A stretch of DNA of 64,000 bases from an uncultured Bacilli bacterium (GCA_934095865.1 CAKOKU010000001.1:10812-74811); one strand, 5' to 3'. Shown: positions 5,118 through 29,062, numbered from the stretch's first letter. Notes: a model not told the origin generated them from the letters alone. Made by a program: numbers and translations.

Positions 5118-5154
5118 TTTGATGTGTTATTAATGTTTTTGTTAGGTAAATTGA

Positions 5155-5192
5155 ACAGTGAGTTTAAAGCGTGAACTTGCTGTTTTAATTTT
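5155..5192 (+). terminator. Rho-independent terminator candidate
   Basis: ACAGTGAGTT / AACTTGCTGT stem (two G-U pairs) followed by TTTTAATTTTT. Confidence 0.45.
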
Positions 5193-5378
5193 TATTTTGA
5201 TAAAATTAACTTTATTTAATATAAAAAAATAATTTCTTAAATAACAAATAATAAAATAGTAATTTTAATTTATAATTATTGATTAAGTTTTTAAAATAAT
5301 TACTTGTAATTGTCTTAAAATACTGTAAAATTATAGTTGTTAGTACGTGATGTACTTTTTAGTAAGTAGAGGAATAAT

Positions 5379-7268
5379 ATGACTAGAGAAGAATTATTAA
5401 AACTAAAAGAAAAATTAAAGGGATTGAACGCGGAACAAGAAATGGAAAGAGATTTGTATCTTCGTAATATTGCCAATGGTACTATTGAGGGACCTTCTGT
5501 TGGAATTCCATCTATTGATAAGCCTTGGTTAAAATATTACACTGAAAATCAAATGCAAAGAAAAATGCCTGCTATGCGAGTTTATGATTATTTATATGAA
5601 TGTAATAAAGGTCATTTAAATAATATTGCTTTAAGCTATTATGGTAGAAAAATAACTTTTAGAGAACTTTTTGAAAATATAGATAGAACTGCTAAAGCTT
5701 TAATTGGTTTGGGAGTAAAACCTGGTGATATTGTAACAATATCAATGCCTAATACACCAGAGGCTGTATATTTGTTTTATGCTATTAGTAAAATTGGTGT
5801 AATTGGTAATATGGTTGATCCTAGAACCAGTGCTGAAGGAATAAAAAATTATGTTGATGAAGTTAAATCTGACCTAGTAATAATTGTTGATAGTTATTAT
5901 GATAAAGTAAGAGATATGGTTGGAAATTCTACTGTATCAAAAGTGGTTTGCGTGTCGCCATCAGAATCATTACCAGTTGTTTTGAATGTTGCTTACAAAT
6001 TGAAGGATAAAATTGATACTCTAAAAGATTCTGATAAGAAAATTAATTATGGCGAAAATGTCTTAAACTGGAAACAATTTATTCAAAGTGGTGAAAATAT
6101 TAATTTACTGGGTGTATTTTATTATCAAAAAGATTATCCAGTTGTAATTGAACATACTGGTGGTACAACAGGTAAACCAAAAGGCGTAGTTTTAAGCAAT
6201 GAAAATATTAATTCTGTTGCTTTACAAAGCGTTTTAACTGGTATTGATATGAAAAGGGAACATAATTGGATGGATATTATGCCTACCTTTATAGCTTATG
6301 GTGTTGGCATGGGATTACATTTGCCTTTGACAATAGGAATGGAAACAATTTTAATTCCTCAATTTGATCCGGCTAAATTTGATGAACTTATTTTAAAAAA
6401 TAAACCAATTCATATGGTAGGTGTTCCTTCATATTGGGGAACTATCATCAATAGCAAAAGATTGAAAAATAAAGATTTATCTTATATGATTGCTCCAACA
6501 GTAGGTGGCGATGCTATGGATAGAAAACTAGAAATGGATGCTAATGAATATTTAAAGAAACATGGTTGTGCTTCTAAAATTGTTAAAGGCTATGGGATGA
6601 CTGAAGTTACTGGTGGTGTTGCTGGTACTGTTGATGAAAATAATGAAATTGGAAGTGTTGGTATTCCTTTTGTAAAAAGTACAATAGCTATATTTGAACC
6701 ACAAACAGAAAATGAATTAGGATATAATCAAAAGGGTGAGATATGTATTTCAAGTCCAAATATGATGCTTGGTTATTATAATAATTTGGAAGCAACAAAT
6801 GCTATTGTATGGACCCATGCTGATGGAAAAAAATGGATTCACACAGGTGATTCTGGATATATGACAGAAAATGGCAATATTTTTGTTATTGATCGTATTA
6901 AAAGAATGATTATTCGTTATGATGGTTTTAAAGTATTCCCATCAGTAATTGAAGATGTAATTGTTTCTCATCCTGCGGTTGCTGCTTGTAAGGTTGTAGG
7001 TATTCCTGATGTTAATCATAGTCAAGGAAAATTACCAAAGGCTCATGTTGTTTTAAAAGAAGCATATAAATATATGGAAAGTGATATTTATAAAGAATTG
7101 CAAGATTTATGTTTTGTGAGACTTCCAGAATATTGTTTACCAGCTGATTATGAATTTACTGATGAATTACCAGTAACATCAATTGGTAAAATAGATTATC
7201 GTAAGCTTGAAGAAATGGATTTAGAAAAAATAACAGCTGGTAAAAAACATATATTGAAGAATAATTAG
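5379..7268 (+). CDS. AMP-dependent (adenylate-forming) acyl-CoA/acyl-carrier ligase
   Basis: ANL superfamily motifs TGGTTGKPKGV, GYGMTE, GDSGYMTENG, IGKIDYRKL. Confidence 0.85.
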   Translation: MTREELLKLKEKLKGLNAEQEMERDLYLRNIANGTIEGPSVGIPSIDKPWLKYYTENQMQRKMPAMRVYDYLYECNKGHLNNIALSYYGRKITFRELFENIDRTAKALIGLGVKPGDIVTISMPNTPEAVYLFYAISKIGVIGNMVDPRTSAEGIKNYVDEVKSDLVIIVDSYYDKVRDMVGNSTVSKVVCVSPSESLPVVLNVAYKLKDKIDTLKDSDKKINYGENVLNWKQFIQSGENINLLGVFYYQKDYPVVIEHTGGTTGKPKGVVLSNENINSVALQSVLTGIDMKREHNWMDIMPTFIAYGVGMGLHLPLTIGMETILIPQFDPAKFDELILKNKPIHMVGVPSYWGTIINSKRLKNKDLSYMIAPTVGGDAMDRKLEMDANEYLKKHGCASKIVKGYGMTEVTGGVAGTVDENNEIGSVGIPFVKSTIAIFEPQTENELGYNQKGEICISSPNMMLGYYNNLEATNAIVWTHADGKKWIHTGDSGYMTENGNIFVIDRIKRMIIRYDGFKVFPSVIEDVIVSHPAVAACKVVGIPDVNHSQGKLPKAHVVLKEAYKYMESDIYKELQDLCFVRLPEYCLPADYEFTDELPVTSIGKIDYRKLEEMDLEKITAGKKHILKNN

Positions 7269-7288
7269 AATGTGGTTGGTGAACTAGT

Positions 7289-9568
7289 ATGATAATAGGG
7301 ATGTCGTTTATTGTTTGCAGCTTAATTTATACATTACTACTTTGTGTTATATATTTTTCTAAATCAAGAATAAAGACAATAGAAACAAGAATGTATGCTG
7401 TACTTTTGATATTAAATGTTGTTGGTTTAATTTTAGAGTTCTTTTGTTGCTTAACTGTTAAAAATCAAGCTGTTATTCCAATTATTAATACGATTGTGAA
7501 TAGAGCCTATTTAGTTTATTTTACTACTTTTATCACGTTATTTACAATTTATATTTATATTATTTGTAATAAAAAGGATTCTGTTAATAAACATTTACTT
7601 CAATTGTTTAACAAGTATGAAATTACGTGGTTTTCTTTATTATTTATTGTGCTGTTGGTTGGGGTATTGTTTTTTCCAATTGAATATTATTATGATGGTG
7701 TGTCTGTTTATTCATTTGGAGCGGCTCCCAATGTTTTAATGATATTTAGTGCTATATACATGATTATTGATGTCATTTCTGTATCTTTAAATATTAAAAA
7801 GATAAAAAAAAGAAAATTAATTCCTTTAATTACATTATTTATTTGTTTTGTAATTGCGTTTATTGTAAGAAATATTAATCCTGGCATTATTCTTATTACT
7901 TGTTCTTTTGCTTTTGTAACAGCTGTAATGTATTTTACAATTGAAAATCCTGATTTAAAAATGGTTAATCAATTAGAACTTGCTAAAAATGAAGCAGAAA
8001 AAGCGAATAGGGCAAAGTCAGATTTCTTGTCTAGTATGAGTCATGAAATAAGAACGCCATTAAATGCTATTGTTGGTCTTTCTAATGATATGAAAGAACG
8101 TGGTAATTGTCCAGAAGATATGAAAGAAGATCTTAATGATATTGTTAGTGCTTCTAATACTTTATTAGAAATAGTTGGAAATATTATGGATATTAATAAG
8201 ATAGAGTCTGATAAAATGGAAATTATTGAGATTCCATATAATTTTAAAGAAGAAATAGAAACTTTAGCGCGTATTGATTCAGTTAGAATTGGTGACAAAC
8301 CAATTGAATTAAAGGTTGATATTGAACAAGATATTCCTTATGAGTTGATTGGGGATAAGGGGCATATTAAGGAAATTGTTAATAATTTATTATCTAATGC
8401 GATTAAATATACCGATGCCGGAACAATTAACTTGAGTGCCAAATGTATAAATAAAGATAATATTTGCAAGCTTATTATAACTTGTAGAGATACTGGTAGA
8501 GGTATTAAAGCAGAAAATATTACTAGATTGTTTAGTAAGTTTGATAGATTAGATGTTGAAAGAAATACAACAGTTGAAGGTACTGGTTTAGGACTTGCTA
8601 TTACCAAAAAATTAGTAGAGCTGATGGGTGGGTCTATTAATGTGCAGTCAACGTTTGGTGAAGGTTCAATTTTTATGGTTACCATACCACAAAGAATTGG
8701 AAAGATGAGCAAACCACTTACTGAAGAGGAACTACTTAATACAGCGCAGATAATGTTAGATGCTAATAAGAATATTGAAATTTATGCTGATAAGAGAATC
8801 TTAGTAGTAGATGATAATAAATTAAATATTAAAGTTGCTAGACGAGCTTTGGAACCTTTGAAATTTGCTTTAATAGATGATGCTGGAAATGGTCAAGAAT
8901 GTCTAGATAAAATAAAAGCAGGAAACAACTATGATGTTATTTTGATGGATATTATGATGCCAATTATGAGTGGTGAGACAGCTATTAAAAAATTACACGA
9001 AATAAAAGGTTTTAATACACCCGTAGTTGCCTTGACTGCGGATGCTATAAGTGGCGCCGAAGAAAAATATAAAAGTGAAGGCTTTGTAAGCTATATTGCA
9101 AAACCTTTTAGTAAAGAACAAATAAAATTAAAATTAGATAGTATTTTTAATAAATCAATAAGCAATGAGGATGTAGATAAGGAAACTAACATATCTAGTG
9201 AAGCCAAAGAAAATTATTTGTTAGACAATGGTATAAATTATAGGAATGGCATTGAATTGTTTGGAGATATAGAAACTTATAATGAAATGCTAAGTGATTG
9301 GTATCATGATTGTGAACAAAAATGGTCAAAAGTCAAAGAATTGTACCAAAATTCTGATATGAAAAATTATTCTGTTGAAGTTCATTCTTTAAAAAGTGAT
9401 AGTAAATATTTTGGCTTTACTAAATTGGCGGAATTAGCGTTAAATCATGAACTAAGAAGTAAGGAAAATGACCTTAAATATGTTAAAAGTAATTTTAAGA
9501 CGTTAGAAAAAGAATATCAAAGAATTGTTAAAATTGTTGCTGTATATTTAAAAAATAAAGAAAGTTAA
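7289..9568 (+). CDS. Hybrid sensor histidine kinase (polytopic TM sensor, HisKA, HATPase_c, REC, HPt)
   Basis: About 6-7 TM helices. H-box SHEIRTPLN; G-boxes DTGRGI and GTGLGL; receiver DVILMDIMMP and KPF; C-terminal HPt VHSLKSDSKYFG (His codon 9383-9385). Confidence 0.9.
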   Translation: MIIGMSFIVCSLIYTLLLCVIYFSKSRIKTIETRMYAVLLILNVVGLILEFFCCLTVKNQAVIPIINTIVNRAYLVYFTTFITLFTIYIYIICNKKDSVNKHLLQLFNKYEITWFSLLFIVLLVGVLFFPIEYYYDGVSVYSFGAAPNVLMIFSAIYMIIDVISVSLNIKKIKKRKLIPLITLFICFVIAFIVRNINPGIILITCSFAFVTAVMYFTIENPDLKMVNQLELAKNEAEKANRAKSDFLSSMSHEIRTPLNAIVGLSNDMKERGNCPEDMKEDLNDIVSASNTLLEIVGNIMDINKIESDKMEIIEIPYNFKEEIETLARIDSVRIGDKPIELKVDIEQDIPYELIGDKGHIKEIVNNLLSNAIKYTDAGTINLSAKCINKDNICKLIITCRDTGRGIKAENITRLFSKFDRLDVERNTTVEGTGLGLAITKKLVELMGGSINVQSTFGEGSIFMVTIPQRIGKMSKPLTEEELLNTAQIMLDANKNIEIYADKRILVVDDNKLNIKVARRALEPLKFALIDDAGNGQECLDKIKAGNNYDVILMDIMMPIMSGETAIKKLHEIKGFNTPVVALTADAISGAEEKYKSEGFVSYIAKPFSKEQIKLKLDSIFNKSISNEDVDKETNISSEAKENYLLDNGINYRNGIELFGDIETYNEMLSDWYHDCEQKWSKVKELYQNSDMKNYSVEVHSLKSDSKYFGFTKLAELALNHELRSKENDLKYVKSNFKTLEKEYQRIVKIVAVYLKNKES

Positions 9569-9626
9569 TAATTAGTTTACTTTCTTTTTTTTGTTTGCTA
9601 GAATAATTTTTGAATTAGGAGCTATT

Positions 9627-10574
9627 ATGAAAAACTATGGTATAATGCATTTTCAATATGCAAATTTAGAAAATTTTACATCTGCTATGGGGATGGAAAT
9701 TCGAAAAAAAATGAATAAATATTTACGAGATATTTTAAAAAAGGCAGCGAAAGAGGAGATTGTTGTTGAACATTATCCACAACTTCATGATGACGAAGCT
9801 TATATTTTTGTTTCTTTGCATAATTTTGTAGAAGATACAATTGTTAATTTAGCGACAATTGATCGAAATGCTTATCTTCTATTTGGGACGACTGACCAGT
9901 TAAAAGTAAATAAGGAGATGTACTTTGCTTGGCTAAATGGTTTTATTTATGTTGATAGAACAGATAAAACTAATCGTGCCATGGCTTTAGAAAAAATGGC
10001 TAGAGTTTTAAATAATGGTAATAGTGTTTTGATTTTTCCCGAGGGTGGATTTAATAATACTGAAAATGTATTATGTCAAAAATTATTTGCTAGTCCATTT
10101 ATTTTAGCTAAAAAAACCGGTGCTAAAGTCGTACCAATTGCTCCTTTTTATGAGTATGGTTCTTCTAAAGTTTATATAAATGTTGGCGAACCATTAGATT
10201 TAGCAGCATTCGATGATAAGAAAGAGGCCCTTTTGTACCTACGCGATATTTTATCAACATTGTTATATGAATTAATAGAAAAATATTCAACACCCATAGC
10301 CAGAGCTGAATTACAAGGCGATTTTAGAATGGCATTTATGGAACAAAGAAAAAAAGAATATATGAAAACGAAATGGACTAAGGATGTTTGGGATGAAGAA
10401 TTAACTAGATATTATGATGCCAAAGAAAGAGATTATTTAGATATGCTTGCAAGTATTGACAATATAAAAGTAACTATTGAAAATGGTGGTATTTTGGGTC
10501 CAACTTTAGTAAGAAGGCTTGAAGATAAAAAATATGATTTTAAACAATATATGCATGAAAATTGGAACAAATAA
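9627..10574 (+). CDS. PlsC/LPLAT-family acyltransferase (1-acyl-sn-glycerol-3-phosphate acyltransferase-like)
   Basis: H-x4-D motif HNFVED and FPEGG motif. Start moved to the ATG at 9627 (AGGAG RBS). Confidence 0.7.
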   Translation: MKNYGIMHFQYANLENFTSAMGMEIRKKMNKYLRDILKKAAKEEIVVEHYPQLHDDEAYIFVSLHNFVEDTIVNLATIDRNAYLLFGTTDQLKVNKEMYFAWLNGFIYVDRTDKTNRAMALEKMARVLNNGNSVLIFPEGGFNNTENVLCQKLFASPFILAKKTGAKVVPIAPFYEYGSSKVYINVGEPLDLAAFDDKKEALLYLRDILSTLLYELIEKYSTPIARAELQGDFRMAFMEQRKKEYMKTKWTKDVWDEELTRYYDAKERDYLDMLASIDNIKVTIENGGILGPTLVRRLEDKKYDFKQYMHENWNK

Positions 10575-10615
10575 AATTTAAATGTTATAATAAACCTATA
10601 ATAGGAGTTGATTTT

Positions 10616-12859
10616 ATGCATTTTCAATCATTGGAATTTGAATTACCCTTTTTCTCGTTTATTTTTATCTTTATGTTATGGATTGTGTATACTTTTAAGA
10701 AAAAAGTGCCGTTAGTAGAAAACAAACCATACGAAGTAATTTTATATTGTTCGTTATTTTCCTCTTTTTTAGATACGATTGTTCATATAATTAGTGCATT
10801 TTCAACTTTAAATGAATTAAATACTACATATTTTAGATTAATAGATTTTCTGAATAAGATAATGTCGACTTTATTTGTTATTATTTTTAGTTGTTTACTT
10901 TTATACACTTTAATTATATCTTATCCTAAAGTAAAGGAGAATTTTAAAAAGTATGCTTTAAGTTTCATAATAGTTGATAGTTTATTTTTTATCACGACAT
11001 TATTTACTTATATTGAAATAATTGAGATTGTTGGCGTTAGAAATGTTAATGGTTTGACTATTTATTTGGGTTATACTTTTGTAGCATTATTTTTACTTGC
11101 TAGTATTATTACTACAATCATTAATTTTAAAAAAGATAAAAGATATTATGCTGTTTATTCAATATTACTGACGATGATTCTTTTATATGCCTGTTCATTA
11201 GTTTTTAAAGGTTTAATTATTTATGATGTTATTTTAGCTTTATTATGTTACATTATGTATTTTACAATTGAAAATCCTGATATTAAAATGATTAAAAAGT
11301 TAGAGTTTTTAAGAGATGAAGCAGAAAAGGCCAACCGAGCTAAGACAGATTTTTTGGCTAGTATGAGTCATGAGATAAGAACTCCTTTAAATGCCATTAT
11401 TGGCTTTTCTAATGATATTATTGAACACAAAGAAGATGCCTCGGAAGAGATTCTAGATGATAGTAAAAATATAGTAATGGCTTCTAATACATTGTTAGAA
11501 ATTGTTGGTAATATTTTAGATATTAATAAGATTGAGGCAAATAAATTAGAAGTTGAAGAAGTAAGTTATAAATTAAGAGATGAAATTTATAGTTTATGTG
11601 AGATTAATAAAATAAGAATTGGTCAAAAAAATATTGTATTTAATGTTAAAATTGATGATAATGTGCCAGATAATTTAATTGGTGATAAGCTAAAGTTAAA
11701 AACCATAGTTAATAATCTAGTAACGAATGCGATTAAATATACCGAACATGGAAAAATTGATTTACAGATAGGGTTAATTGGTAAACTAGATGGTGATGTA
11801 GTTAATCTTAAGATTGTTTGCGAAGATACTGGTATTGGTATAAAAGAAGAAAATATTAGTAAGTTATTTACGAAATTTGAGAGATTAGATGTAGAAAAAA
11901 ATTCAACAATCGAAGGCACTGGCTTGGGATTGGTAATTACAAAAGCTTTAGTAGAAATACTCGGAGGCACAATAAAGGTTGAATCTTTTTATGGTATGGG
12001 ATCTAAGTTTATTGTTAATATTCCTCAAAAAATTAATAGAAGTACCATTATTACAGAAAATGGTAGTCTTAATAAAGAATTACAAAAAGAATCTATTAAT
12101 GATACTTTATACACTGATAAAAAAGTTTTAATTGTCGATGATAATAAGTTAAATATTAAAGTAGCTCGTCGCGTTTTAAAATCAATTGGTCTTAATTCTG
12201 ATGAATGTTATAATGGTGCCGAATGTTTGGAAAAGATTAAGCAAGGCAATAAATACGATGTTATTTTAACGGATATTATGATGCCAGTCATGAATGGCGA
12301 ACAAGCGCTTTTAGAGTTAAAAAAATTGCCTAATTTTGTAATGCCTGTAATTGCTTTAACTGCGGATGCTGTCAGTGGTGCTGAAGAAAAATATAGAAGT
12401 GAAGGCTTCGATGAATATATTTCTAAACCTTTTACGAAAGAACAGTTGCAATTTAAACTATCAAAAGTTTTGCAGAATAGTCAGCTAGATTTTACCTTTT
12501 TAAGCAAAAATGGTATTAATTTTGAGAAAAGTGATTTATATCTTAAAAATTCTTCTCAATATCTACAAAATTTAATGAAATGGCATAAAAATAGTAAAGA
12601 TGAATTTAAGATGTTAAAGCAGTCATGCGAGGAGTTTAATCTTGTCCATTACAGGAATGCTATTGAAAGATTACTAAATGAATGTAGTGAACTTGGGTTT
12701 GTCGATTTAAAAATTATTGCTGAAGAACATGAATTGCAATGTCGCGATGAAAAAAATAGTGATTATATTGTCAAGTATTTTAGTGAACTTGAAAAAGAAT
12801 ATAAAAAGATTGTTTTGACTTTAGATAAGTTCTTTAACAATAAAGATGGGGTGAAGTGA
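10616..12859 (+). CDS. Hybrid sensor histidine kinase, paralogue of 7289-9568, with degenerate HPt
   Basis: Same architecture: SHEIRTPLN, DTGIGI, GTGLGL, DVILTDIMMP. In a gapless alignment of the C-terminal domain, Glu (12665-12667) sits where the paralogue has the HPt His. Start moved to the ATG at 10616 (AGGAG RBS). Confidence 0.9.
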   Translation: MHFQSLEFELPFFSFIFIFMLWIVYTFKKKVPLVENKPYEVILYCSLFSSFLDTIVHIISAFSTLNELNTTYFRLIDFLNKIMSTLFVIIFSCLLLYTLIISYPKVKENFKKYALSFIIVDSLFFITTLFTYIEIIEIVGVRNVNGLTIYLGYTFVALFLLASIITTIINFKKDKRYYAVYSILLTMILLYACSLVFKGLIIYDVILALLCYIMYFTIENPDIKMIKKLEFLRDEAEKANRAKTDFLASMSHEIRTPLNAIIGFSNDIIEHKEDASEEILDDSKNIVMASNTLLEIVGNILDINKIEANKLEVEEVSYKLRDEIYSLCEINKIRIGQKNIVFNVKIDDNVPDNLIGDKLKLKTIVNNLVTNAIKYTEHGKIDLQIGLIGKLDGDVVNLKIVCEDTGIGIKEENISKLFTKFERLDVEKNSTIEGTGLGLVITKALVEILGGTIKVESFYGMGSKFIVNIPQKINRSTIITENGSLNKELQKESINDTLYTDKKVLIVDDNKLNIKVARRVLKSIGLNSDECYNGAECLEKIKQGNKYDVILTDIMMPVMNGEQALLELKKLPNFVMPVIALTADAVSGAEEKYRSEGFDEYISKPFTKEQLQFKLSKVLQNSQLDFTFLSKNGINFEKSDLYLKNSSQYLQNLMKWHKNSKDEFKMLKQSCEEFNLVHYRNAIERLLNECSELGFVDLKIIAEEHELQCRDEKNSDYIVKYFSELEKEYKKIVLTLDKFFNNKDGVK

Positions 12860-13140
12860 TGCAAAGATTACAATTTCAAGTCCAAGATAATATAGGAAAA
12901 ACAATAATGTATGATGTGATTGCCACTTATCAACATGATAAAGGTAAAAATTTTATTATCTATACGGATAGAACTTTAAATAAAGAGGGAAAGTTAAATG
13001 TATATTATTCATTATACAAAGAAGCGGATAAAAATATTGAATTAATAGAAGTTACTGATATGGAAGATAAAAAGATAGGGTTAGAATTACTTAAAGAAAT
13101 ACTTAAATTATTAGAAAATGACAATGAAAAGAGAAGCTAA
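12856..13140 (+). CDS. Small acidic protein, DUF1292-like
   Basis: 94 aa, overlaps the kinase stop (GTGATG). The pattern YDVIATY...GKNFIIYTD...EGKLNVYYSLY...IELIEVTDMED resembles DUF1292. The start could instead be the ATG at 12859. Confidence 0.55.
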   Translation: MMQRLQFQVQDNIGKTIMYDVIATYQHDKGKNFIIYTDRTLNKEGKLNVYYSLYKEADKNIELIEVTDMEDKKIGLELLKEILKLLENDNEKRS

Positions 13141-13206
13141 TAACACTTTAAATAGGTGTTATTTTTTCTATAATTTTGATATACTAAAATGGCATTTGAG
13201 GTTTAT

Positions 13207-15027
13207 ATGATTAATAAAGTAAAAGATATGATTTTTTATAATTTAAAGGAATTAATAATCTTTCAGTTAGTATTTAAAGTTACTAGTTTTTTAATATTTA
13301 TGCCATTATTTTTAAACCTTTTTAATATAATTATGAAAGTTACAGGTTATAATTATCTAACCTTAGAGAATATTACAGGTTTTATTATTAATCCATTGGT
13401 TATTATATTATTGATAATGTTAATTCTTTTTATGATGATGTTTAACTTTTTTGATTTAAGTACAATTATAGTACTTTTGGATGCCTCATATCAGAAAAAA
13501 GCTGTGGATATTAAGGAAGCTTTAGGAATATCTTTAAAAAAATCATTACAAGTTTTTAAAATTAATAACTTGCCTTTGGCTTTTATGTTGTTGTTTTTGA
13601 TACCGTTCTTAAATATAGGAATAGCTTCTGGTTTTGTTTCTTCTATATCTGTTCCTGAATTTGTTATGGATTATATTAATAATAATATATTATTTAAAAT
13701 TATATTTTGGCTAATATTTTCTGGTCTTTTGATTATTCTTTTAAGATGGTTATATGCAATACACTATTATGTTTTAGAAAATAATAATTTTCGACAAGCA
13801 AGAGCTAAAAGCATCAAGTTAAATGCTAAAAATCGCTTGTTAGATTTGATTAAGATGATAGTGGTTCAGTTAATAATTTTTTTGTTATATATAATTTTTC
13901 TCTTCTTGGGAATTGCCATAATTTATTTAATATACTTGTCTTTAAAAAAGATAGTAGTAGTTAGCAGTATTTTTATAACTATAATTGGTATCTTTTTAGG
14001 ATTATCACTTGTTATTGTTGCTTTGCTGTCTACTCCGATTAGTTATGCTTGCATGAGTGCCTTGTTTTATCAAAATAAGATAAAAAGTGGTGAGAAAATA
14101 AAACATATACAGTTTAATAAAATTAAAAAAATAACTATAAGTACCGTTAGATGGCGTCGTTTTAAGACTAGTTTGGTTTTATGCAGTGTCTTAACAGGCA
14201 GTGTGTTTACGTATGGTTTAGTAACGGGTAGATATAACTTTAATATTGAATATATTAAAAAACAAGAAATTACTGCGCATCGGGGGAGTTCAATTAAATA
14301 TCCTGAAAATACGATGTTAGCATTTATTGGTGCTTTAAATGAACAAGCTAATTGGATTGAGTTAGACGTTCAACAAACAAAGGATGATGTCTTAGTAGTT
14401 AGTCATGATAATAATTTAAAACGCACGACTGGAAAAGATATTAACATCACAGATGTGAACTATGATGAAATCGAAGAAATAGACGTTGGGAGCTATCTAA
14501 ATTCTAATTACCCTATATCATATATACCAAGATTAGAAGATGTTATAAAATGGGCTAGTTCAAATAATATGAAAGTTAATATTGAATTGAAACCAAATGG
14601 AATGGAAAATGACTTAGAAGAAAAAGTCATAGCATTAATCAAAAAGTATAATTTTGAAGATAATTGTGTGGTTGCTTCTGGTAAGTATGAAGTTTTAGAA
14701 AAAGTTAAAGAAATAGATGATGATATTAAAACGGCCTATGTAATGAGTTTCTTTTATGGTGATATTATAAAATTGGATAAAGTAGATGTTTTTAGTATAG
14801 AAGCATCTAGTATCAATAGTGAATTAGTTAAAAAGATTCATAATAATGGTAAGGAAATCTATGCTTGGACTGTTAATAATAGTGATAGTATAAATAAAAT
14901 GTTAGAACTTAATGTTGATAATATTATTACGGATGATGTAGAATTAGCATATAGATTATTATTTAAAAGTAGAAGTAGTAATTTAGTTTTTGTTTATATC
15001 AAATATGTAGAGAAAGTGTTTAGGTAG
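13207..15027 (+). CDS. Membrane-anchored glycerophosphodiester phosphodiesterase (GDPD)
   Basis: N-terminal multi-TM domain, then ITAHRGSS..YPENT, ELDVQQTKDDVLVVSHD and IELK motifs. Start placed at 13207 (GAGG RBS); 13189 is the alternative. Confidence 0.85.
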   Translation: MINKVKDMIFYNLKELIIFQLVFKVTSFLIFMPLFLNLFNIIMKVTGYNYLTLENITGFIINPLVIILLIMLILFMMMFNFFDLSTIIVLLDASYQKKAVDIKEALGISLKKSLQVFKINNLPLAFMLLFLIPFLNIGIASGFVSSISVPEFVMDYINNNILFKIIFWLIFSGLLIILLRWLYAIHYYVLENNNFRQARAKSIKLNAKNRLLDLIKMIVVQLIIFLLYIIFLFLGIAIIYLIYLSLKKIVVVSSIFITIIGIFLGLSLVIVALLSTPISYACMSALFYQNKIKSGEKIKHIQFNKIKKITISTVRWRRFKTSLVLCSVLTGSVFTYGLVTGRYNFNIEYIKKQEITAHRGSSIKYPENTMLAFIGALNEQANWIELDVQQTKDDVLVVSHDNNLKRTTGKDINITDVNYDEIEEIDVGSYLNSNYPISYIPRLEDVIKWASSNNMKVNIELKPNGMENDLEEKVIALIKKYNFEDNCVVASGKYEVLEKVKEIDDDIKTAYVMSFFYGDIIKLDKVDVFSIEASSINSELVKKIHNNGKEIYAWTVNNSDSINKMLELNVDNIITDDVELAYRLLFKSRSSNLVFVYIKYVEKVFR

Positions 15028-15028
15028 T

Positions 15029-16636
15029 ATGAAAAAGAATAAGAAATATATTTTGCTAGTAATATTTTGGTTGGTTTTAGCAAATTTGGAATTTTTAGTT
15101 TTTAAAAATCTTATTTATGGTCATGATATTCATTTTCATATTGCCAGAATAAATGGTATTGTTGATAGTTTAAGAGCGGGAATTTTTCCGGCCCTAATAT
15201 ATCCGAACTATCTTAATGGTTATGGGTATGCTAACGGTATTTTTTATGCTGATATTTTTCTTTACATTCCAGCTATCCTTAGTTTGTTGGGACTTAGTGT
15301 CGTTAATAGTTATAAAGTATTCATGATTATAGTGAATATTGGTATATTTTTTAGCATGAAATTTGCTATAAAGAAAGTAACAAAGAATGATTATGTTAGT
15401 CTTATTATTGCTCTTATTTATTTAATGAGTTCTTATAAGATAAGTGATATGTTTTTGCGAGCTGCTGTTGGTGAGGTTATAGCGTTTGTCTTCTTTCCAT
15501 TATTTATGCTAGGTCTTTATAGTATTTTTTATGGTGATAAAAAAGATTGGTATTGGTTTACAATTGGTATAGTTGGTATCTGCTTTTGTCATAATTTGAG
15601 TCTTGTCATGGCTTTTATACTAGTATGTTTTTGCTTTCTATTAAATATCAAAAAGATGTTTACGGATAAAGAGCGCTTGTTAACTTTATTAAAAGGTGGG
15701 ATTTTGGGCGTACTTCTTTCTTCTTGTTTTTTAGGTACTTTACTTGAAGCCATGAAAAGTGATAGCTTTAGGTATAGTAATTTAGTAGGCAGTGATATGG
15801 TGGTCATGCGTGCTGCTAATCCTTTATATAGCATTGTGGCCATTCCTTCTGGTACGCATCCATGGCAGCCATTAGGCATTGGTTTAATTTTCGTCTTTTT
15901 ACTTGCTTTTTTACGAAAAATGATTAACAAAGTTCAAAATAAAAATGATAATAAATTTAGTATTGACTGTTTGCTATTGGGGATTGTTTTTCTTGTTATG
16001 GCAACGACTATATTCCCTTGGAACATATTTAAAAATGTATTAGGAATAATTCAATTTCCATGGCGATTTTATATGTTGGTTACGATCTTGTTATTGTTTG
16101 GCTTTGCTATTTTGCTAACTAATTATAAAAAATTAAACAAGAAAATATTTACTTTTATTGTTTGCGGTTTCATGTTTGGCACGTGGGCAGTTGGCTTTTT
16201 GTATCATTACCGCTTTGAGCATTTAGATGAATATAAGCCTTATTATATTAGTAATGGTGAGTATGTTCCGGTTGGCGTTGATACGGATTTTATTAATGCT
16301 CGTGGTGAGGTAATTACTTCGAATAATGAAGAATTACATACAGTTTTTGTAAGAAATGGTATTAATCTAGATATAAATTATAGTAATAATGAAGGGAATA
16401 ATACCTATATTGAATTACCGCTTGTTTATTATAAAGGTTATGTTGCTAAAGAAAATAATACTAAGTTAACAGTTGCAAAAGGAGATAATGGTCTTGTTAG
16501 AGTTTATCTTCCTAATAAAGAAGGCAGTATAAAAGAGTATTATGGTTTTACAAATATTCGAATTATTTCTTATAGTATATCAATTTTAAGTTTGGTAATT
16601 TTTATTTATCTAATAAAAAAAGAAAAGCAAAAGTAA
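15029..16636 (+). CDS. Polytopic membrane protein, possibly a GT-C-fold glycosyltransferase
   Basis: More than 12 predicted TM helices, a GHDIHFHIARING motif in the first loop, and a C-terminal soluble domain plus a final TM. The functional call is a guess from architecture. Confidence 0.6.
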   Translation: MKKNKKYILLVIFWLVLANLEFLVFKNLIYGHDIHFHIARINGIVDSLRAGIFPALIYPNYLNGYGYANGIFYADIFLYIPAILSLLGLSVVNSYKVFMIIVNIGIFFSMKFAIKKVTKNDYVSLIIALIYLMSSYKISDMFLRAAVGEVIAFVFFPLFMLGLYSIFYGDKKDWYWFTIGIVGICFCHNLSLVMAFILVCFCFLLNIKKMFTDKERLLTLLKGGILGVLLSSCFLGTLLEAMKSDSFRYSNLVGSDMVVMRAANPLYSIVAIPSGTHPWQPLGIGLIFVFLLAFLRKMINKVQNKNDNKFSIDCLLLGIVFLVMATTIFPWNIFKNVLGIIQFPWRFYMLVTILLLFGFAILLTNYKKLNKKIFTFIVCGFMFGTWAVGFLYHYRFEHLDEYKPYYISNGEYVPVGVDTDFINARGEVITSNNEELHTVFVRNGINLDINYSNNEGNNTYIELPLVYYKGYVAKENNTKLTVAKGDNGLVRVYLPNKEGSIKEYYGFTNIRIISYSISILSLVIFIYLIKKEKQK

Positions 16637-16709
16637 TTAATTATTTTGGTAAAATCTACTTGTTATAATTTATGAAATTAAAATAAAAATATTGGAGGTG
16701 GTAACGAAA

Positions 16710-18596
16710 ATGAAATATGTAATAAAAAATGGCGCTGTTAGCATTGATGGAAAAAGTGTGTTAGAGTGCATTAATTTAGAAATAAATGATCATGATAAGA
16801 TAGCTATTGTTGGGAAGAATGGGGCTGGTAAAACTACGTTATTAAATGCCATTGTTGATAATAATTTATTGGAAGAAGGTATTGGTGATGATAAGTTTCA
16901 GATAATAAAACAGGGAAATCCGAGTATTGGTTATCTAAAACAAATAGAACTAAATGATAATAATACATTGATTGAAGAAGTTAGAAAACCGTTTGCAAAT
17001 CTAATAAAAATGGAAGAAAAATTAAATAATTTGTTATTAAAAATGCAATCTGGTAGTGATTCAAAAGCTACTATGGGGTATTCAGTTTTAGAAGAACAAT
17101 TTAAATTAAATGATGGCTATAATTATAAGAAAGAATATGAAGTTTTATTAAAAAAATTTGGCTTTACTGAGGAAGATAAAAATAAATTATTAAAAGATTT
17201 TTCTGGTGGTCAAAAAACTAAGATAGCTTTTGTTAAAATGCTTTTAGATAAACCTGATATACTTCTTTTAGATGAACCGACAAATCATTTAGATGTAGAT
17301 ACTGTTGAGTGGCTTGAAGAATATTTAAGAAATTACAAGAAGGCCATTATTTTAGTATCACATGATAGAATGTTTATTAATAATATTGTTGATATTGTTT
17401 ATGATATTAGTTACGGTGCTACGACGAAATATACGGGTAATTATGATTATTATGAAAAGCAAAAGCAATTAAATTATGAAAAAGCCTTAAAGGATTATGA
17501 GTACCAACAAAAAGAAATCAAGAAACTTACTAGTATATATGAGAGATTTAGAAGTAAACCATCGAAAGCTAGTATGGCGATGTCTAGATTACATATGTTA
17601 GAAAAAATGGATATTTTAGAACGACCAAATAAAATAGAAGCAATGACTTTTAGAACTAATATGGATAATATTCCTAATTGTGGTAGAGATGTCTTAATAA
17701 CTAATGATTTACAAGTTGGCTATGAACAATCTCTTTATACTTTAAATCTGTTTGTGCGTAGAAAAGATAAATTGGGTATTATAGGACCAAATGGATTAGG
17801 CAAATCAACGATTTTAAAAACAATTGCTGGTAAAACTCCGCAACTTGGTGGTACTTTTACTTGGAATAATGGAGTTAAAATAGGCTATTTTGATCAAAAT
17901 TTAGCGATGTTAGATGAAAATAACAGTATTTTGGAAGAATTTATGGCTACTTATCCAACAATTTTGGAATATGAAGCTCGTACGTTTTTGGGATCATTTT
18001 TATTTAAAGGTGATGATGTATATAAGAAGTTGAATGTTTTATCTGGTGGCGAAAGAGTAAGACTCCAGTTATGTAAAATCTTTTATAGTAAGCCTAATGT
18101 TTTATTATTGGATGAACCGACAAATCATTTAGACATCGTTGGCCGTGAATATTTAGAGGAAATTTTAAGTGTTTATGGTGGTACAATTATATTTGTATCT
18201 CATGATAGATATTTTATCAAAAAAGTTGCTAATTCTTTATTAGTATTAAATAAAGAAAGTGCTACTTATTATGCTGGTGGTTATACTGATTACTTGAATA
18301 ATATTAAAACAACTGTTAGCAGTGTTGATGTTAATTCAAAGGAAAATAAAAATTTAACAGGTAATAAAGAGAAGAAAAATAATTATACTTTAAGTAAAGA
18401 ACTAAAAGCTTTAGAGCGAAATATAAGTAAATTAGAATTGAATATTAAAAAATTGGAAGAAAGTCTATATTTGGAAGAAATTTATAATAATCGCGAAAAA
18501 CTGGTTGCTGTAAATAATGAGATTAGTGCAAAGAAGGAAGAATTGGAAAGTCTTAATAATAAGTGGTTAGAATTGTCTGTTGAACTTGAGAATTAA
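16710..18596 (+). CDS. ABC-F family ATPase (two ABC domains, no TMD)
   Basis: Two Walker A motifs (GKNGAGKTT, GPNGLGKST), two signature motifs (FSGGQK, LSGGER) and a C-terminal coiled coil. Start at the ATG at 16710 after GGAGGTGG. Confidence 0.9.
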   Translation: MKYVIKNGAVSIDGKSVLECINLEINDHDKIAIVGKNGAGKTTLLNAIVDNNLLEEGIGDDKFQIIKQGNPSIGYLKQIELNDNNTLIEEVRKPFANLIKMEEKLNNLLLKMQSGSDSKATMGYSVLEEQFKLNDGYNYKKEYEVLLKKFGFTEEDKNKLLKDFSGGQKTKIAFVKMLLDKPDILLLDEPTNHLDVDTVEWLEEYLRNYKKAIILVSHDRMFINNIVDIVYDISYGATTKYTGNYDYYEKQKQLNYEKALKDYEYQQKEIKKLTSIYERFRSKPSKASMAMSRLHMLEKMDILERPNKIEAMTFRTNMDNIPNCGRDVLITNDLQVGYEQSLYTLNLFVRRKDKLGIIGPNGLGKSTILKTIAGKTPQLGGTFTWNNGVKIGYFDQNLAMLDENNSILEEFMATYPTILEYEARTFLGSFLFKGDDVYKKLNVLSGGERVRLQLCKIFYSKPNVLLLDEPTNHLDIVGREYLEEILSVYGGTIIFVSHDRYFIKKVANSLLVLNKESATYYAGGYTDYLNNIKTTVSSVDVNSKENKNLTGNKEKKNNYTLSKELKALERNISKLELNIKKLEESLYLEEIYNNREKLVAVNNEISAKKEELESLNNKWLELSVELEN

Positions 18597-18889
18597 TGCC
18601 TAAAATATGCAAAGTAAGGGCTTTTGTGTATAGTAAGAAAGAATTTAATAAATCTCTTCAATGTATTAAGGATATAAATGAGAAAACTTTAATTTTAGCT
18701 ATTGAAAATATGAATTTGGTTTCACTAAATTTTAATATTCATGATTATGATCCTTCAGATTTTAAAAAAGTTAATGAAACTGTTTATAGAAAAGAAGAAG
18801 AATTGTATAAAATTAATGGTTACTTTTCTGCTTTGTCTTTAATAGGTGTTATGTTAGTCGATTTAGGTTTAGTAATAGAATCAGATTAA
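18596..18889 (+). CDS. Hypothetical protein, hydrophobic C-terminus
   Basis: 97-aa ORF whose ATG overlaps the ABC-F stop (TAATG). No recognisable motif. Confidence 0.4.
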   Translation: MPKICKVRAFVYSKKEFNKSLQCIKDINEKTLILAIENMNLVSLNFNIHDYDPSDFKKVNETVYRKEEELYKINGYFSALSLIGVMLVDLGLVIESD

Positions 18890-19786: not shown

Positions 19787-19810
19787 GGTACTAGAAATAG
19801 TATCTTTTTT
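19787..19810 (+). terminator. Rho-independent terminator
   Basis: GGTACTA-gaaa-TAGTATC followed by TTTTTT. Confidence 0.6.
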
Positions 19811-19929: not shown

Positions 19930-19954
19930 ATTATGAATTTATGGGGTGATAAGT

Positions 19955-20680
19955 GTGGCACTTATAAGAGTAAAAGGTATTGAAGAATTAAATTTAAGAG
20001 GTAAATCAATTAATGCTGGCGACCATGGTGAAATCTATGAATTTGATTCTACACATTATTTTAAAAGAATAAATGATGCTGATGGATTATTAAATAATAC
20101 TACAAATTATCAACGTAAAAACATATTAGAGTTTTTGATGAAATTTAAAGGTACAAAACATTTAGTTTTTCCTGAAGATATTTATGTTACTAAAGAGCAA
20201 TTGCTTGGCTATACTTCTGTGAAGAAGGATGCCAAACCGTTAGCGTCTTTAGATGATGATGCCAGATTAGCCGATGTTTTAAAATCTTTTAAAGTATTAC
20301 TAAAAGAATTAAAAATTTTAGCAAATGGTGGTGTTTTTAATTATGATTTATCTCCCGACAATGTCTTATTTGATAAAGAAATGTGGGTTATAGATTTTGA
20401 TGAAAGTTCTTATAATAAAAAGCTTAGCTATGAAAGAATGGTTTTGCGTCTTTTCCAAACTGTTAGAGATTCAATAGTTGGTGATTGCTATGCTTCGCCT
20501 TTATTAAGACAAAGAGATTTAGAAGAGTTATACCGTCAATTTGTGTCGTATGAGTCTTTAGATTATGATGCCTATTTTCGCTTATTAATATCAAATGCCG
20601 AGTATGCAAATTATTTTAAAAGAGTAAAAACGGTCGGCGATTTAAGAAGAAGCTTAGAAATAGCAAAGAAAAATTTATGA
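19955..20680 (+). CDS. Minimal protein-kinase-like fold protein, paralogue 1 (motifs intact)
   Basis: NYDLSPDNVLF (20339-20371) matches a kinase catalytic loop; VIDFDES (DFD at 20393-20401) matches the metal-binding motif. FKRIN gives a candidate VAIK-type Lys. GTG start at 19955 yields MALIRVKGIEE, parallel to the paralogues. Confidence 0.6.
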   Translation: MALIRVKGIEELNLRGKSINAGDHGEIYEFDSTHYFKRINDADGLLNNTTNYQRKNILEFLMKFKGTKHLVFPEDIYVTKEQLLGYTSVKKDAKPLASLDDDARLADVLKSFKVLLKELKILANGGVFNYDLSPDNVLFDKEMWVIDFDESSYNKKLSYERMVLRLFQTVRDSIVGDCYASPLLRQRDLEELYRQFVSYESLDYDAYFRLLISNAEYANYFKRVKTVGDLRRSLEIAKKNL

Positions 20681-21447: not shown

Positions 21448-22194
21448 ATGGCAATTATAAAAGTTAAGAATATACAAGAGATTGGTTTTAGTAATGATAT
21501 AGTACGTACAAGCAGAACTGGCGTTAATTATACTATGCCTGGACAGGATAATGTTGTTTTCAAAAGATTAAATAATGATACTGGTTTTTTAGATTCACAA
21601 GAAAGTGAGGACCGTTTTAATACTTTAGTTGAATTGATGAATAATGGTAAGGTTTATACCGGTTGTGAAATTCCTCAAGATATATATATTTCTGGGGATG
21701 GGGTATATTTATATGGATATTCATTATTAGATAGTGGTAAATCATCTTTAAAAAGTAGACAAAACTATGATGGAAGTTATATTAAATTTTTAATTGATTA
21801 TAAAAAATTTTTAGCTGAACTTCGTGAAATGGCAAATCATGGAGTTAGTCATTATGGCATTGATTCTTCGACTTTATTATATAGTCGTAACGATGGCTTT
21901 ACTTTAAGTAGTGTAGATGAGTGCAGACATTCTGGTTATATTGCTCTATATCAGGAAATGGGTGCAAAATCTTTTGAAGTTATTAAAGGATATATTACAA
22001 GGGGTTACGAAGAATCGCCAATTTTAAGAGATGGTGGCTTACAAGCGTTAGAAGAAGCATTTAAAAATCGTAGTCGTGCTTGTTATATGAGATATTTATA
22101 TAAATTACAATTTGAGACTTCGATGGAATTAGGTAGTCCAGCTACAAGTATTGAAGATGTAAGAAATGGTCTAAAACATAGTTTAAAAAGATAA
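21448..22194 (+). CDS. Kinase-like paralogue 3 with degenerate catalytic motifs (predicted pseudokinase)
   Basis: N-terminus MAIIKVKNIQE and VFKRLNN are conserved. The catalytic loop becomes HYGIDSSTLLY and DFD becomes SSVDE. AAGGTG RBS. Confidence 0.6.
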   Translation: MAIIKVKNIQEIGFSNDIVRTSRTGVNYTMPGQDNVVFKRLNNDTGFLDSQESEDRFNTLVELMNNGKVYTGCEIPQDIYISGDGVYLYGYSLLDSGKSSLKSRQNYDGSYIKFLIDYKKFLAELREMANHGVSHYGIDSSTLLYSRNDGFTLSSVDECRHSGYIALYQEMGAKSFEVIKGYITRGYEESPILRDGGLQALEEAFKNRSRACYMRYLYKLQFETSMELGSPATSIEDVRNGLKHSLKR

Positions 22195-25095: not shown

Positions 25096-25154
25096 ATAAT
25101 ATTTTGACTTTTTAGAAAATTTCTTTATAATATAGCTTACGGAGGTTTTTAGCA

Positions 25155-28982: not shown

Positions 28983-29062
28983 AAGTACACTTTAAGAAAA
29001 CAAAAAGCGACAAAAGCATAGATTTCTTAATTTATGGAATAATAAATATGAAAGGGATTATT

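Follow-up and report, generated by a model that had tools for sequence, protein, structure and literature searches.

Two described signalling systems come closest to the locus reported here. In Xanthomonas, RpfC, a hybrid histidine kinase of the His-Asp-His (H-D-H) type with five transmembrane (TM) helices, senses a fatty-acid signal and works with a regulator that does not bind DNA, and its receiver domain holds the synthase RpfF independently of the phosphorelay (PMC4504480). For CqsS, a hybrid kinase with TM-only input, a 2026 preprint reports that the cytoplasmic domain binds the neighbouring synthase CqsA tightly (PMC13174287). The present locus lies at positions 5379-16636 of a 64,000-nucleotide (64 kb) stretch of DNA from an uncultured Bacilli bacterium (GCA_934095865.1, CAKOKU010000001.1:10812-74811), referred to below as the window, and consists of seven co-directional open reading frames (ORFs) in which an earlier note, made from the sequence of the window, had seen an operon interleaving two hybrid histidine kinases with lipid- and envelope-modifying enzymes; gene calls bear out all seven ORFs at these coordinates. 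As far as gene neighbourhoods indicate, comparison with related loci shows the conserved unit to be two paralogous two-gene cassettes, acyl ligase-HK1 and PlsC-type acyltransferase (AT)-HK2. There is about an even chance that in these two conserved enzyme-kinase cassettes intramembrane lipid sensors are coupled directly to their partner enzymes. Should this hold, two-component hardware would control lipid enzymes directly and not via transcription. No published description of such an enzyme-kinase module was found in the literature searched. The four genes of the cassettes are the following.

5379..7268, + strand: adenylate-forming acyl ligase, FadD-like, 629 amino acids (aa), with AMP-binding and AMP-binding_C domains; first gene of the ligase-HK1 pair
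7289..9568, + strand: HK1, hybrid kinase with seven TM helices (7-TM), ligase-type clade, with HisKA, HATPase_c, REC and Hpt domains
9627..10574, + strand: predicted soluble AT of the PlsC/LPLAT superfamily (PF01553), 315 aa; first gene of the AT-HK2 pair
10616..12859, + strand: HK2, 7-TM hybrid kinase, AT-type clade, with HisKA, HATPase_c and REC domains

Gene neighbourhoods were compared across about 35 related loci (designated here by L numbers), of which 18 came from a pattern scan with one genome per species and the others from individual protein look-ups. An AT gene followed directly by a kinase of this family was found in 20 distinct loci with wholly different flanks (AlaRS, RNase HII, PAP2, LGT, a PBP5-type carboxypeptidase, CdaA, FtsA/FtsZ), and the linkage was counted in 22 of the 24 evaluable loci when L012 and L013, which have intervening genes, are included; in L013 these are a ligase and a second AT. 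The only kinase-free AT loci are two Lachnospiraceae contigs (37-41% GC), where the AT lies among ligases and other acyltransferases. A ligase followed by a family kinase occurs in five loci (the window, L007, L009, L030 and L031), the full order ligase-kinase-AT-kinase being found again in L007 and L009. In this sense the interleaving of kinases and acyl-activating or acyl-transferring enzymes, to which the earlier note had drawn attention, is conserved, with AT-kinase pairs in about 22 loci and sensor clades that track the enzyme; of the seven-gene order, the gene-neighbourhood check found only ligase-HK1-AT-HK2 or its halves to be kept. Separately, L012 carries at L012:6936-8336 an insertion sequence-type transposase (DUF772 and DDE_Tnp_1) between AT and kinase.

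All but three of the 18 scanned loci have a GC content of 22-29%, being labelled uncultured Bacilli or Tenericutes or coming from mis-binned metagenome-assembled genomes. The module was seen on contigs of 23-29% GC labelled Muribaculaceae (L015, L019, L020) or Melainabacteria (L014); because of their low GC content within genomes of high-GC or unrelated taxa, these four are almost certainly binning contaminants from low-GC Bacilli. Judging from this distribution, the cassettes are specific to a lineage of uncultured gut Bacilli of roughly 23-29% GC, which abounds in human guts, those of the Hadza and other cohorts, and is without a cultured model.

For the enzymes, as for the kinase cores (HisKA, HATPase_c, REC) and a membrane-anchored glycerophosphodiester phosphodiesterase (GDPD) further downstream, the domains named in the earlier note agree with Pfam. 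The ligase matches AMP-binding at 2.6e-67 and AMP-binding_C at 3.6e-13 and keeps the ANL core motifs TGGTTGKPKG, GYGMTE, TGDSG and SIGK. Its best NCBIfam matches are long-chain-fatty-acid--CoA ligases, every one below the equivalog cut-off, and a sequence search of the PDB returned ligase relatives among the structures. The AT matches PF01553 at 5.8e-12 and contains the motifs HNFVED (9819-9836), NGFIYVDR, FPEGG (10035-10049) and VVPIA; a profile search of the PDB found PlsC (5kym) at 1e-6, and Foldseek with an AlphaFold2 model of the AT placed PlsC from the same entry (TmPlsC, 5kym) first at 1.9e-8, followed by PatA and LpxM. By sequence profile and predicted fold, the AT is assigned to the PlsC/LPLAT (AGPAT) superfamily. 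Its score with the NCBIfam model AGP_acyltrn, 38.7, is far under the cut-off of 103, and hydropathy analysis found no hydrophobic segment in it, PlsC proper having an N-terminal, membrane-embedded anchor of two helices.

Searches brought up more than 400 homologues of the AT; leaving aside the window's own protein, the best 119 are 56-72% identical to it. The AT ends in a conserved helical extension of about 100 aa. This extension was considered as a kinase-docking domain and rejected, as it is equally conserved in Lachnospiraceae, which lack the kinase. Ligase and AT genes are neighbours without a kinase in L013, L016, L017 and L025. One of these, L017, a 9.2-kb contig of a Blautia schinkii isolate (37% GC), carries a tightly packed cluster in which three AMP-binding ligases stand with three acyltransferases of the PF01553 type, one of them a homologue 54% identical to the window AT, and with no kinase; to go by its gene content, this cluster may represent a multi-acylation pathway.

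For the kinases, HK1 is made up of a 7-TM domain (aa 1-222), an H-box with His252, a CA domain, a REC domain with Asp554 and an Hpt domain with His699 (VHSLKSDSKYFGF), and HK2 of a 7-TM domain, an H-box with His252, a CA domain, a REC domain with Asp553 and an Hpt-like tail. Both have the H-box SHEIRTP and, as N, G1 and G2 boxes, NAIKY, DTG and GTGLGL, and both receivers have VDDN, DIMMP, LTADA and KPF, in which the DD, D, T and K residues are present. A PDB sequence search with HK1 returned kinase cores only. The Hpt domain of HK1 scores 23.9 bits in Pfam, slightly below the cut-off of 24.6; it is 40-47% identical to the Hpt domains of stand-alone Hpt-REC proteins and has the motif VHSLKSDSKYFGF in common with them. 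The tail of HK2 is homologous to this domain (tblastn, 3.5e-8), has no match to the Pfam Hpt model, and carries, at 12665-12682, a Glu in place of the phospho-accepting His (IERLLNE, against VHSLKSD in HK1). By these residues HK2 is an H-D kinase with a pseudo-Hpt and HK1 the only full H-D-H kinase of the window, so that the earlier description of full H-D-H hybrid kinases applies to HK1, with its canonical His699, and fails for HK2. A tblastn search with both REC domains found no further receiver domain in the 64 kb; the claim that a cognate response regulator is lacking stands with the window, not the genome, as its scope. The kinase genes of three relatives (L030:8001-10237, L031:8001-9751 and L032:8001-9835) are split in two ORFs just past HisKA, which reflects either an assembly frameshift error (some contig names suggest long reads) or genuinely split genes.

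The sensory halves of the two kinases end in a shared junction motif.

7931..7954, + strand: HK1 junction motif YFTIENPD, where TM7 ends and the DHp helix begins; homogenisation between the two kinases has its left edge here
11258..11281, + strand: HK2 junction motif YFTIENPD, located by motif search

The N-terminal 240 aa of HK1 and HK2 gave no Pfam input-domain match at E<=10, HisKA_7TM, 7TMR-DISM_7TM, 5TMR_LYT and MASE included. Residues 1-275 of HK2 were predicted by AlphaFold2 (pLDDT 87.6) and hydropathy to form seven TM helices with the N terminus outside and the C terminus inside; the only extracellular feature of the model is a 14-residue beta-hairpin, and TM7 is part of one unbroken helix (203-274) that runs through the H-box and is continuous with DHp. 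The earlier view of the sensors as purely polytopic and free of PAS and HAMP domains is confirmed by Pfam and by the HK2 model, and the junction it had noticed in both kinases proved to be a family signature, MYFTIENPD standing at the expected position in about 100 of 148 retrieved sensor-family sequences. An exhaustive phmmer search of 1.84 billion representatives yielded 160 sensor matches (60 at E<=1e-10), and in all full-length hits (460-820 aa) but one the match is N-terminal; a word-indexed search for homologues of the HK2 sensor brought up mainly fragments, truncated or frameshifted. Conservation is concentrated in cytoplasmic loops 1 and 5, at the inner end of TM3 and at the junction, the conserved positions not being on the outer face. 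Homology of the 7-TM model to folds in the PDB was considered and rejected, as Foldseek gave generic 7-TM proteins (class C G-protein-coupled receptors, the adiponectin receptor) at E of about 1e-3 and TM-scores of about 0.5. The sensor is, by these searches, a 7-TM input domain without a family model. Its seven TM helices expose almost no extracellular surface, and the last of them passes unbroken into the kinase helix; the sensor therefore most likely responds to a lipid resident in the membrane, and the intramembrane or lipid signal proposed by the earlier note is judged the most reasonable input. This uncharacterised domain would be an addition to the short list of intramembrane lipid sensors.

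The two halves of the kinases appear to have had different histories. In a neighbour-joining tree, the 7-TM domains split cleanly into those of ligase-following and those of AT-following kinases, unlike the cytoplasmic halves (DHp-CA-REC), which group by genome. Amino-acid identities between the kinases of one genome are as follows.

HK1 and HK2 of the window: 22% in 7TM, 56% in DHp-CA-REC
Two kinases of L007: 26% in 7TM, 80% in DHp-CA-REC
Two kinases of L009: 27% in 7TM, 71% in DHp-CA-REC

At the nucleotide level the similarity between same-genome kinases is 69% in the window, 83% in L007 and 80% in L009 over about 1.2 kb, and the block of similarity runs from the codons of the junction motif to the end of REC. 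The paralogues L009:7746-9587/10747-12585 and L007:6594-8408/9626-11467 have long near-identical stretches in the receiver region, and the pattern in these two loci has the appearance of gene conversion whose breakpoint is fixed at the MYFTIENPD codons. The transmitter-receiver modules would be kept alike, and the sensors distinct, either by gene conversion that recurs or by selection. The homogenised cytoplasmic halves fit a shared downstream partner or heterodimerisation through DHp, and the paralogues may form heterodimers by means of their homogenised DHp domains, integrating two lipid cues. Such modular evolution, in which the sensor half tracks the enzyme and the cytoplasmic half is homogenised up to a sharp boundary at the junction, would let paralogous sensors keep a common output.

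In several relatives the kinases have degenerated (both copies in L007 and in L009, as well as L008, L010, L015 and L022-24). Their H-box has Gln or Asn where the His would be, the G2 box has disappeared, and the Asp, Thr and Lys of the receiver are missing as well. These proteins keep the 7-TM domain with MYFTIENPD, the N and G1 boxes and their position beside the AT, the catalytic motifs of which are intact in the same loci. The linkage to the enzyme outlives phosphotransfer, since kinase-dead clades retain the pairing with the AT. In L004-6 and L032-35, an intact kinase is followed by a 257-260-aa Hpt-REC protein with the canonical His and Asp and without an output domain. Where it can be traced in relatives, domain content shows that the predicted relay does not end on a DNA-binding protein, and the lack of a DNA-binding regulator at the window locus fits a relay that ends, as in relatives, on an output-less Hpt-REC protein. 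Kinase-competent and kinase-dead clades amount to a natural experiment that could separate phosphorelay-dependent from phosphorelay-independent functions.

These observations bear on a conventional alternative, in which the kinases would sense membrane properties in the manner of DesK (fluidity, thickness or fatty-acid content) and, through a remote response regulator, control transcription of their own operon without contacting the enzymes. Kinase genes are commonly co-transcribed with their targets, all catalytic residues are present in both window kinases, and the continuity of TM7 with DHp resembles the mechanical coupling of the DesK type; in addition, every AT-kinase pair of the relatives is provided with a -10-like promoter of its own, and only 64 kb of the genome is visible, so that a regulator may lie elsewhere. 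However, such control leaves the retention of the pair unexplained in clades without the phosphorylatable His and with a degenerate receiver, and the extra relay gene that is linked to the cassettes encodes an output-less Hpt-REC protein, not a DNA-binding regulator. Moreover, a k-mer search upstream of the AT across 13 loci found no family-wide operator beyond shuffled controls. On these grounds we regard conventional control as unlikely, though it may still apply in the organism of the window, its kinases being intact. As to individual clades, a perfect palindrome, TTGTATCA-N6-TGATACAA, lies about 60-90 nt upstream of the AT start in L004, L005 and L032, and at this site L032 also has a small gene of the HTH_3 (Xre) type with divergent transcription; L008 and L010 have another palindrome upstream of the AT, TGTAAA-ATG-TTTACA. 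From their position, these palindromes may be clade-specific operators.

If the sensors are instead coupled directly to their partner enzymes, the cassettes might work as follows. We infer an activation/transfer route from ligase to AT from family membership and from the adjacency of the two genes without kinases in other loci; the ligase would activate a fatty acid, and the AT would pass the acyl group to a lyso-lipid or similar acceptor. Each 7-TM kinase would read a membrane lipid that the enzyme encoded directly upstream uses as substrate or makes as product. One output arm would be a His-Asp-His relay, in which the sole intact Hpt, on HK1, probably serves HK2 too, and which in relatives would end on an Hpt-REC protein without a DNA-binding or other output domain. 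In the other arm, the cytoplasmic part of the kinase would control the partner enzyme by protein-protein contact, as in RpfC-RpfF and CqsS-CqsA; such direct control would explain why entire clades keep the pair after losing the phosphorylation residues.

Several points weigh against direct coupling. The terminal relay acceptor of this organism is not in the 64-kb window. The AT with its C-terminal extension occurs kinase-free in Lachnospiraceae, and therefore does not need a kinase to function. Adjacency of enzyme and kinase is equally expected from simple two-component autoregulation of target genes, and the homogenised cytoplasmic halves could be mere gene conversion of nearby tandem paralogues, without functional meaning. 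A related possibility, rather unlikely as it stands and about half as probable as direct coupling to lipid sensors, is that the 7-TM kinase-like proteins act as regulatory subunits that gate the ligase and the AT post-translationally, the relay to an output-less Hpt-REC protein being optional and dropped in some clades, where pseudokinases result.

The same organisation may also be read as the first lipid-type autoinducer synthase-receptor circuit in Bacillota, a variant in which the ligase-fed AT would make a diffusible acylated signal, the 7-TM kinases would be its receptors and the relay would lead to a receiver that does not bind DNA. The layout of synthase beside receptor, the TM-only hybrid kinase and the clustered ligase resemble the diffusible signal factor (DSF) and CAI-1 systems, PlsC-family enzymes have been reported as HdtS-type acyl-homoserine-lactone synthases, and two diverged sensors on near-identical transmitters recall the parallel receptors of Vibrio. 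However, the AT is highly conserved (50-72% identity) while the sensor and ligase diverge far more, which suggests a housekeeping substrate; entire kinase-dead clades are hard to square with a phosphorelay-based quorum response, and close homologues of the AT are receptor-free in Lachnospiraceae. In addition, L040, a relative with a homologue of the seventh ORF of the window, has at L040:3851-6663 an agr-like cluster (AgrB, a LytTR response regulator and an HATPase_c_5 kinase), so that quorum sensing by peptides is present among related low-GC gut bacteria. An autoinducer circuit is accordingly considered improbable. A homeostatic role is favoured by the kinase-dead clades, by how well the AT is conserved and by neighbourhoods of envelope type; the arrangement of synthase and receptor and the HdtS-type synthases reported in the PlsC family leave the autoinducer reading some weight.

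The remaining features of the seven-gene array and its boundaries are listed below.

5153..5185, + strand: terminator-like hairpin with a 14-bp stem and T-run, 3' of the upstream ttcA-like gene; likely 5' boundary of the unit
12856..13140, + strand: small acidic protein of 93-94 aa without family assignment (gene 5)
13142..13174, + strand: weak hairpin (AACAC...GTGTT) and T-run overlapping a promoter-like site, TTTAAA-16-TATAAT, before the GDPD gene
13189..15027, likely start 13207, + strand: membrane-anchored GDPD, with GPDPase_memb and GDPD domains
15029..16636, + strand: gene 7, short polytopic membrane protein of YfhO/PTPS_related type as judged by its homologues, 535 aa

The window has a GC content of 26-33%, a strong positive GC skew and almost every gene on the + strand. 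Independent gene calls on metagenome contigs encoding an identical HK1 gave identical genes and starts. Most starts have an AGGAG-like ribosome-binding site, and the intergenic spacing ranges from overlap to 58 nt, in accordance with the tight packing described earlier. Downstream of the hairpin at 5153-5185 follows a 190-nt AT-rich leader with several promoter-like sites; the whole interval from the ttcA-like gene to the ligase (5118-5378) is a 261-nt, extremely AT-rich leader with at least four overlapping promoter-like sites. Scanning all 64 kb with Rfam and for tRNAs gave no match; the region upstream of the ligase thus yielded neither a riboswitch nor a leader RNA.

A consensus scan found terminator-like sites at 2574-2592 and 5153-5185 only and none inside 5379-16636, by a requirement for three G-C pairs that is strict for a genome of 28% GC. 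By eye and folding, a hairpin and T-run were located at 13142-13167 and the promoter-like site at 13147-13174, a possible internal boundary before the GDPD gene as far as these signals can be read. The earlier statement that the array lacks an internal terminator holds for the consensus scan and is qualified by this site. The next convincing hairpin and T-run after the cluster is at 19787-19810, past an ABC-F gene, a 97-aa ORF and an SDR gene, all co-directional. Within 16692-18889, the ABC-F ATPase gene comes 55-73 nt after gene 7, and the 97-aa ORF, which has no family match, overlaps the ABC-F stop by one base; with these two genes so tightly spaced and co-directional, the array does not end at 16636. 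Since the whole genome stretch points the same way, operon limits are not settled by orientation and spacing.

For gene 5, the label DUF1292-like is not upheld, there being no match to PF06949 at E<=10; a pairwise comparison with a genuine DUF1292 protein, one that passes the PF06949 model, gives only 29% identity across 63 aa. The GDPD gene scores 1e-36 with GPDPase_memb and 5.2e-40 with GDPD in Pfam. A dedicated scan of gene 7 against Pfam at E<=10 gave no match, a precomputed annotation has only a 'faint' YfhO-type match, and a PDB sequence search with it returned nothing. Homologues of gene 7 (38-63% identity) score 43.8-64.9 bits with YfhO, the cut-off being 28.5, and also match PTPS_related and DUF6541 (YfhO and PTPS_related being PF09586 and PF10131; model length 835 positions against 535 aa for gene 7). 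Gene 7 is presumably, by way of these homologues, a short YfhO-type membrane protein with a GT-C fold; the GT-C-like label of the earlier note is thus supported by transitivity through the YfhO-scoring homologues, though gene 7 has no Pfam match of its own.

The last three genes bear on the original proposal of a self-contained operon of seven genes, the enzymes of which would make or remodel a glycolipid or teichoic-acid-linked molecule and the two kinases of which would sense it. The tight spacing, the single orientation and the absence of a strong internal terminator in the scan would agree with it, and GDPD and YfhO-type proteins are known as families to act on glycerophosphate polymers and in teichoic-acid glycosylation. 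However, no homologue of the small protein was found in the 18 genome loci compared, and neither it nor a GDPD or YfhO-type gene adjoins the AT-kinase pair in any other locus examined. In a sister species, whose gene 7 homologue is 63% identical, the GDPD gene, gene 7 and the next gene stand together, with four unrelated genes between them and the kinase. The pair of GDPD gene and gene 7 is conserved in this species only; a relative further removed has its gene 7 homologue beside MurT/GatD. A hairpin with T-run and a promoter-like site precede the GDPD gene, and the co-directional array simply runs on into the ABC-F, 97-aa and SDR genes. The self-contained module is not sustained, its last three genes being unlinked to the AT-kinase pair elsewhere, and we consider it very improbable. 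By their predicted products and neighbourhoods, the genes for the small protein, the GDPD and the YfhO-like protein lie outside the conserved module, as neighbours that run in the same direction and have functions in the envelope.

Further along the window, 19946-20680 and 21448-22194 are paralogous ORFs (26% identity, E 3e-14) without a Pfam match and with two small ORFs between them. Three tandem paralogous ORFs (551, 569 and 581 aa; 24-30% mutual identity) at 23440-28602 have signal-peptide- or lipoprotein-like N-termini and no Pfam match, and they are followed at 29048-31069 by a 673-aa ORF that also has no Pfam match.

In comparison with known systems, the module resembles Rpf/DSF in its composition, a fatty acyl-CoA ligase (RpfB) and a lipid-handling enzyme standing beside a hybrid kinase with TM-only input and HisKA-HATPase-REC-Hpt domains, and in that the RpfG regulator lacks a DNA-binding domain. 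A phosphorelay-free contact between REC and enzyme, of the RpfC type, would explain the kinase-dead relatives. However, RpfF is a crotonase, whereas the enzyme here is a PlsC-type acyltransferase; RpfC has five TM helices against seven here, with no sequence relation detected, and no crotonase-type synthase or HD-GYP regulator is present among the window ORFs scanned in and around the cluster. Here, moreover, there are two paralogous sensors, each tied to another enzyme, and the hosts are Gram-positive-type low-GC Bacilli. With CqsA/CqsS the module shares an enzyme gene adjoining a TM-only hybrid kinase. The hydrophobic ligand of CqsS is bound within the membrane domain, the last TM helix signals to the cytoplasm, and several receptors converge on one Hpt. 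CqsS differs in having six TM helices, not seven, and no fused Hpt (LuxU being separate), CqsA is pyridoxal phosphate-dependent, and the output protein LuxO binds DNA; no CqsS structure was among the Foldseek matches of the 7-TM model. By analogy, Rpf/DSF and CqsA/CqsS are best taken as functional analogues only, not as families to which the module belongs.

Other systems share single elements. Aas of E. coli, a 2-acyl-glycerophosphoethanolamine acyltransferase fused to an acyl-acyl carrier protein synthetase and acting with LplT, unites the same two chemistries in the re-acylation of lysophospholipids; here they reside in separate proteins, without an LplT-like MFS flippase, Aas has no kinase partner, and the AT matches the Aas-type models of NCBIfam weakly, far under their cut-offs. 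DesK/DesR likewise has a sensor of TM helices only, whose last helix is continuous with DHp and which is tied to a lipid-modifying enzyme gene, but DesK is a five-TM, non-hybrid kinase of the HisKA_3 type with an adjacent DNA-binding regulator of the NarL type, whereas the present kinases have HisKA (PF00512) and REC. HisKA_7TM (PF16927) and 7TMR-DISM proteins also fuse a 7-TM input to a histidine kinase, and a match to these Pfam models is absent here at E<=10. The earlier note was right that the layout is unusual for a two-component system, but precedents exist in Rpf/DSF and CqsA/CqsS, and since its logic has precedents in these systems and its parts all come from known superfamilies, the module is not categorically new.

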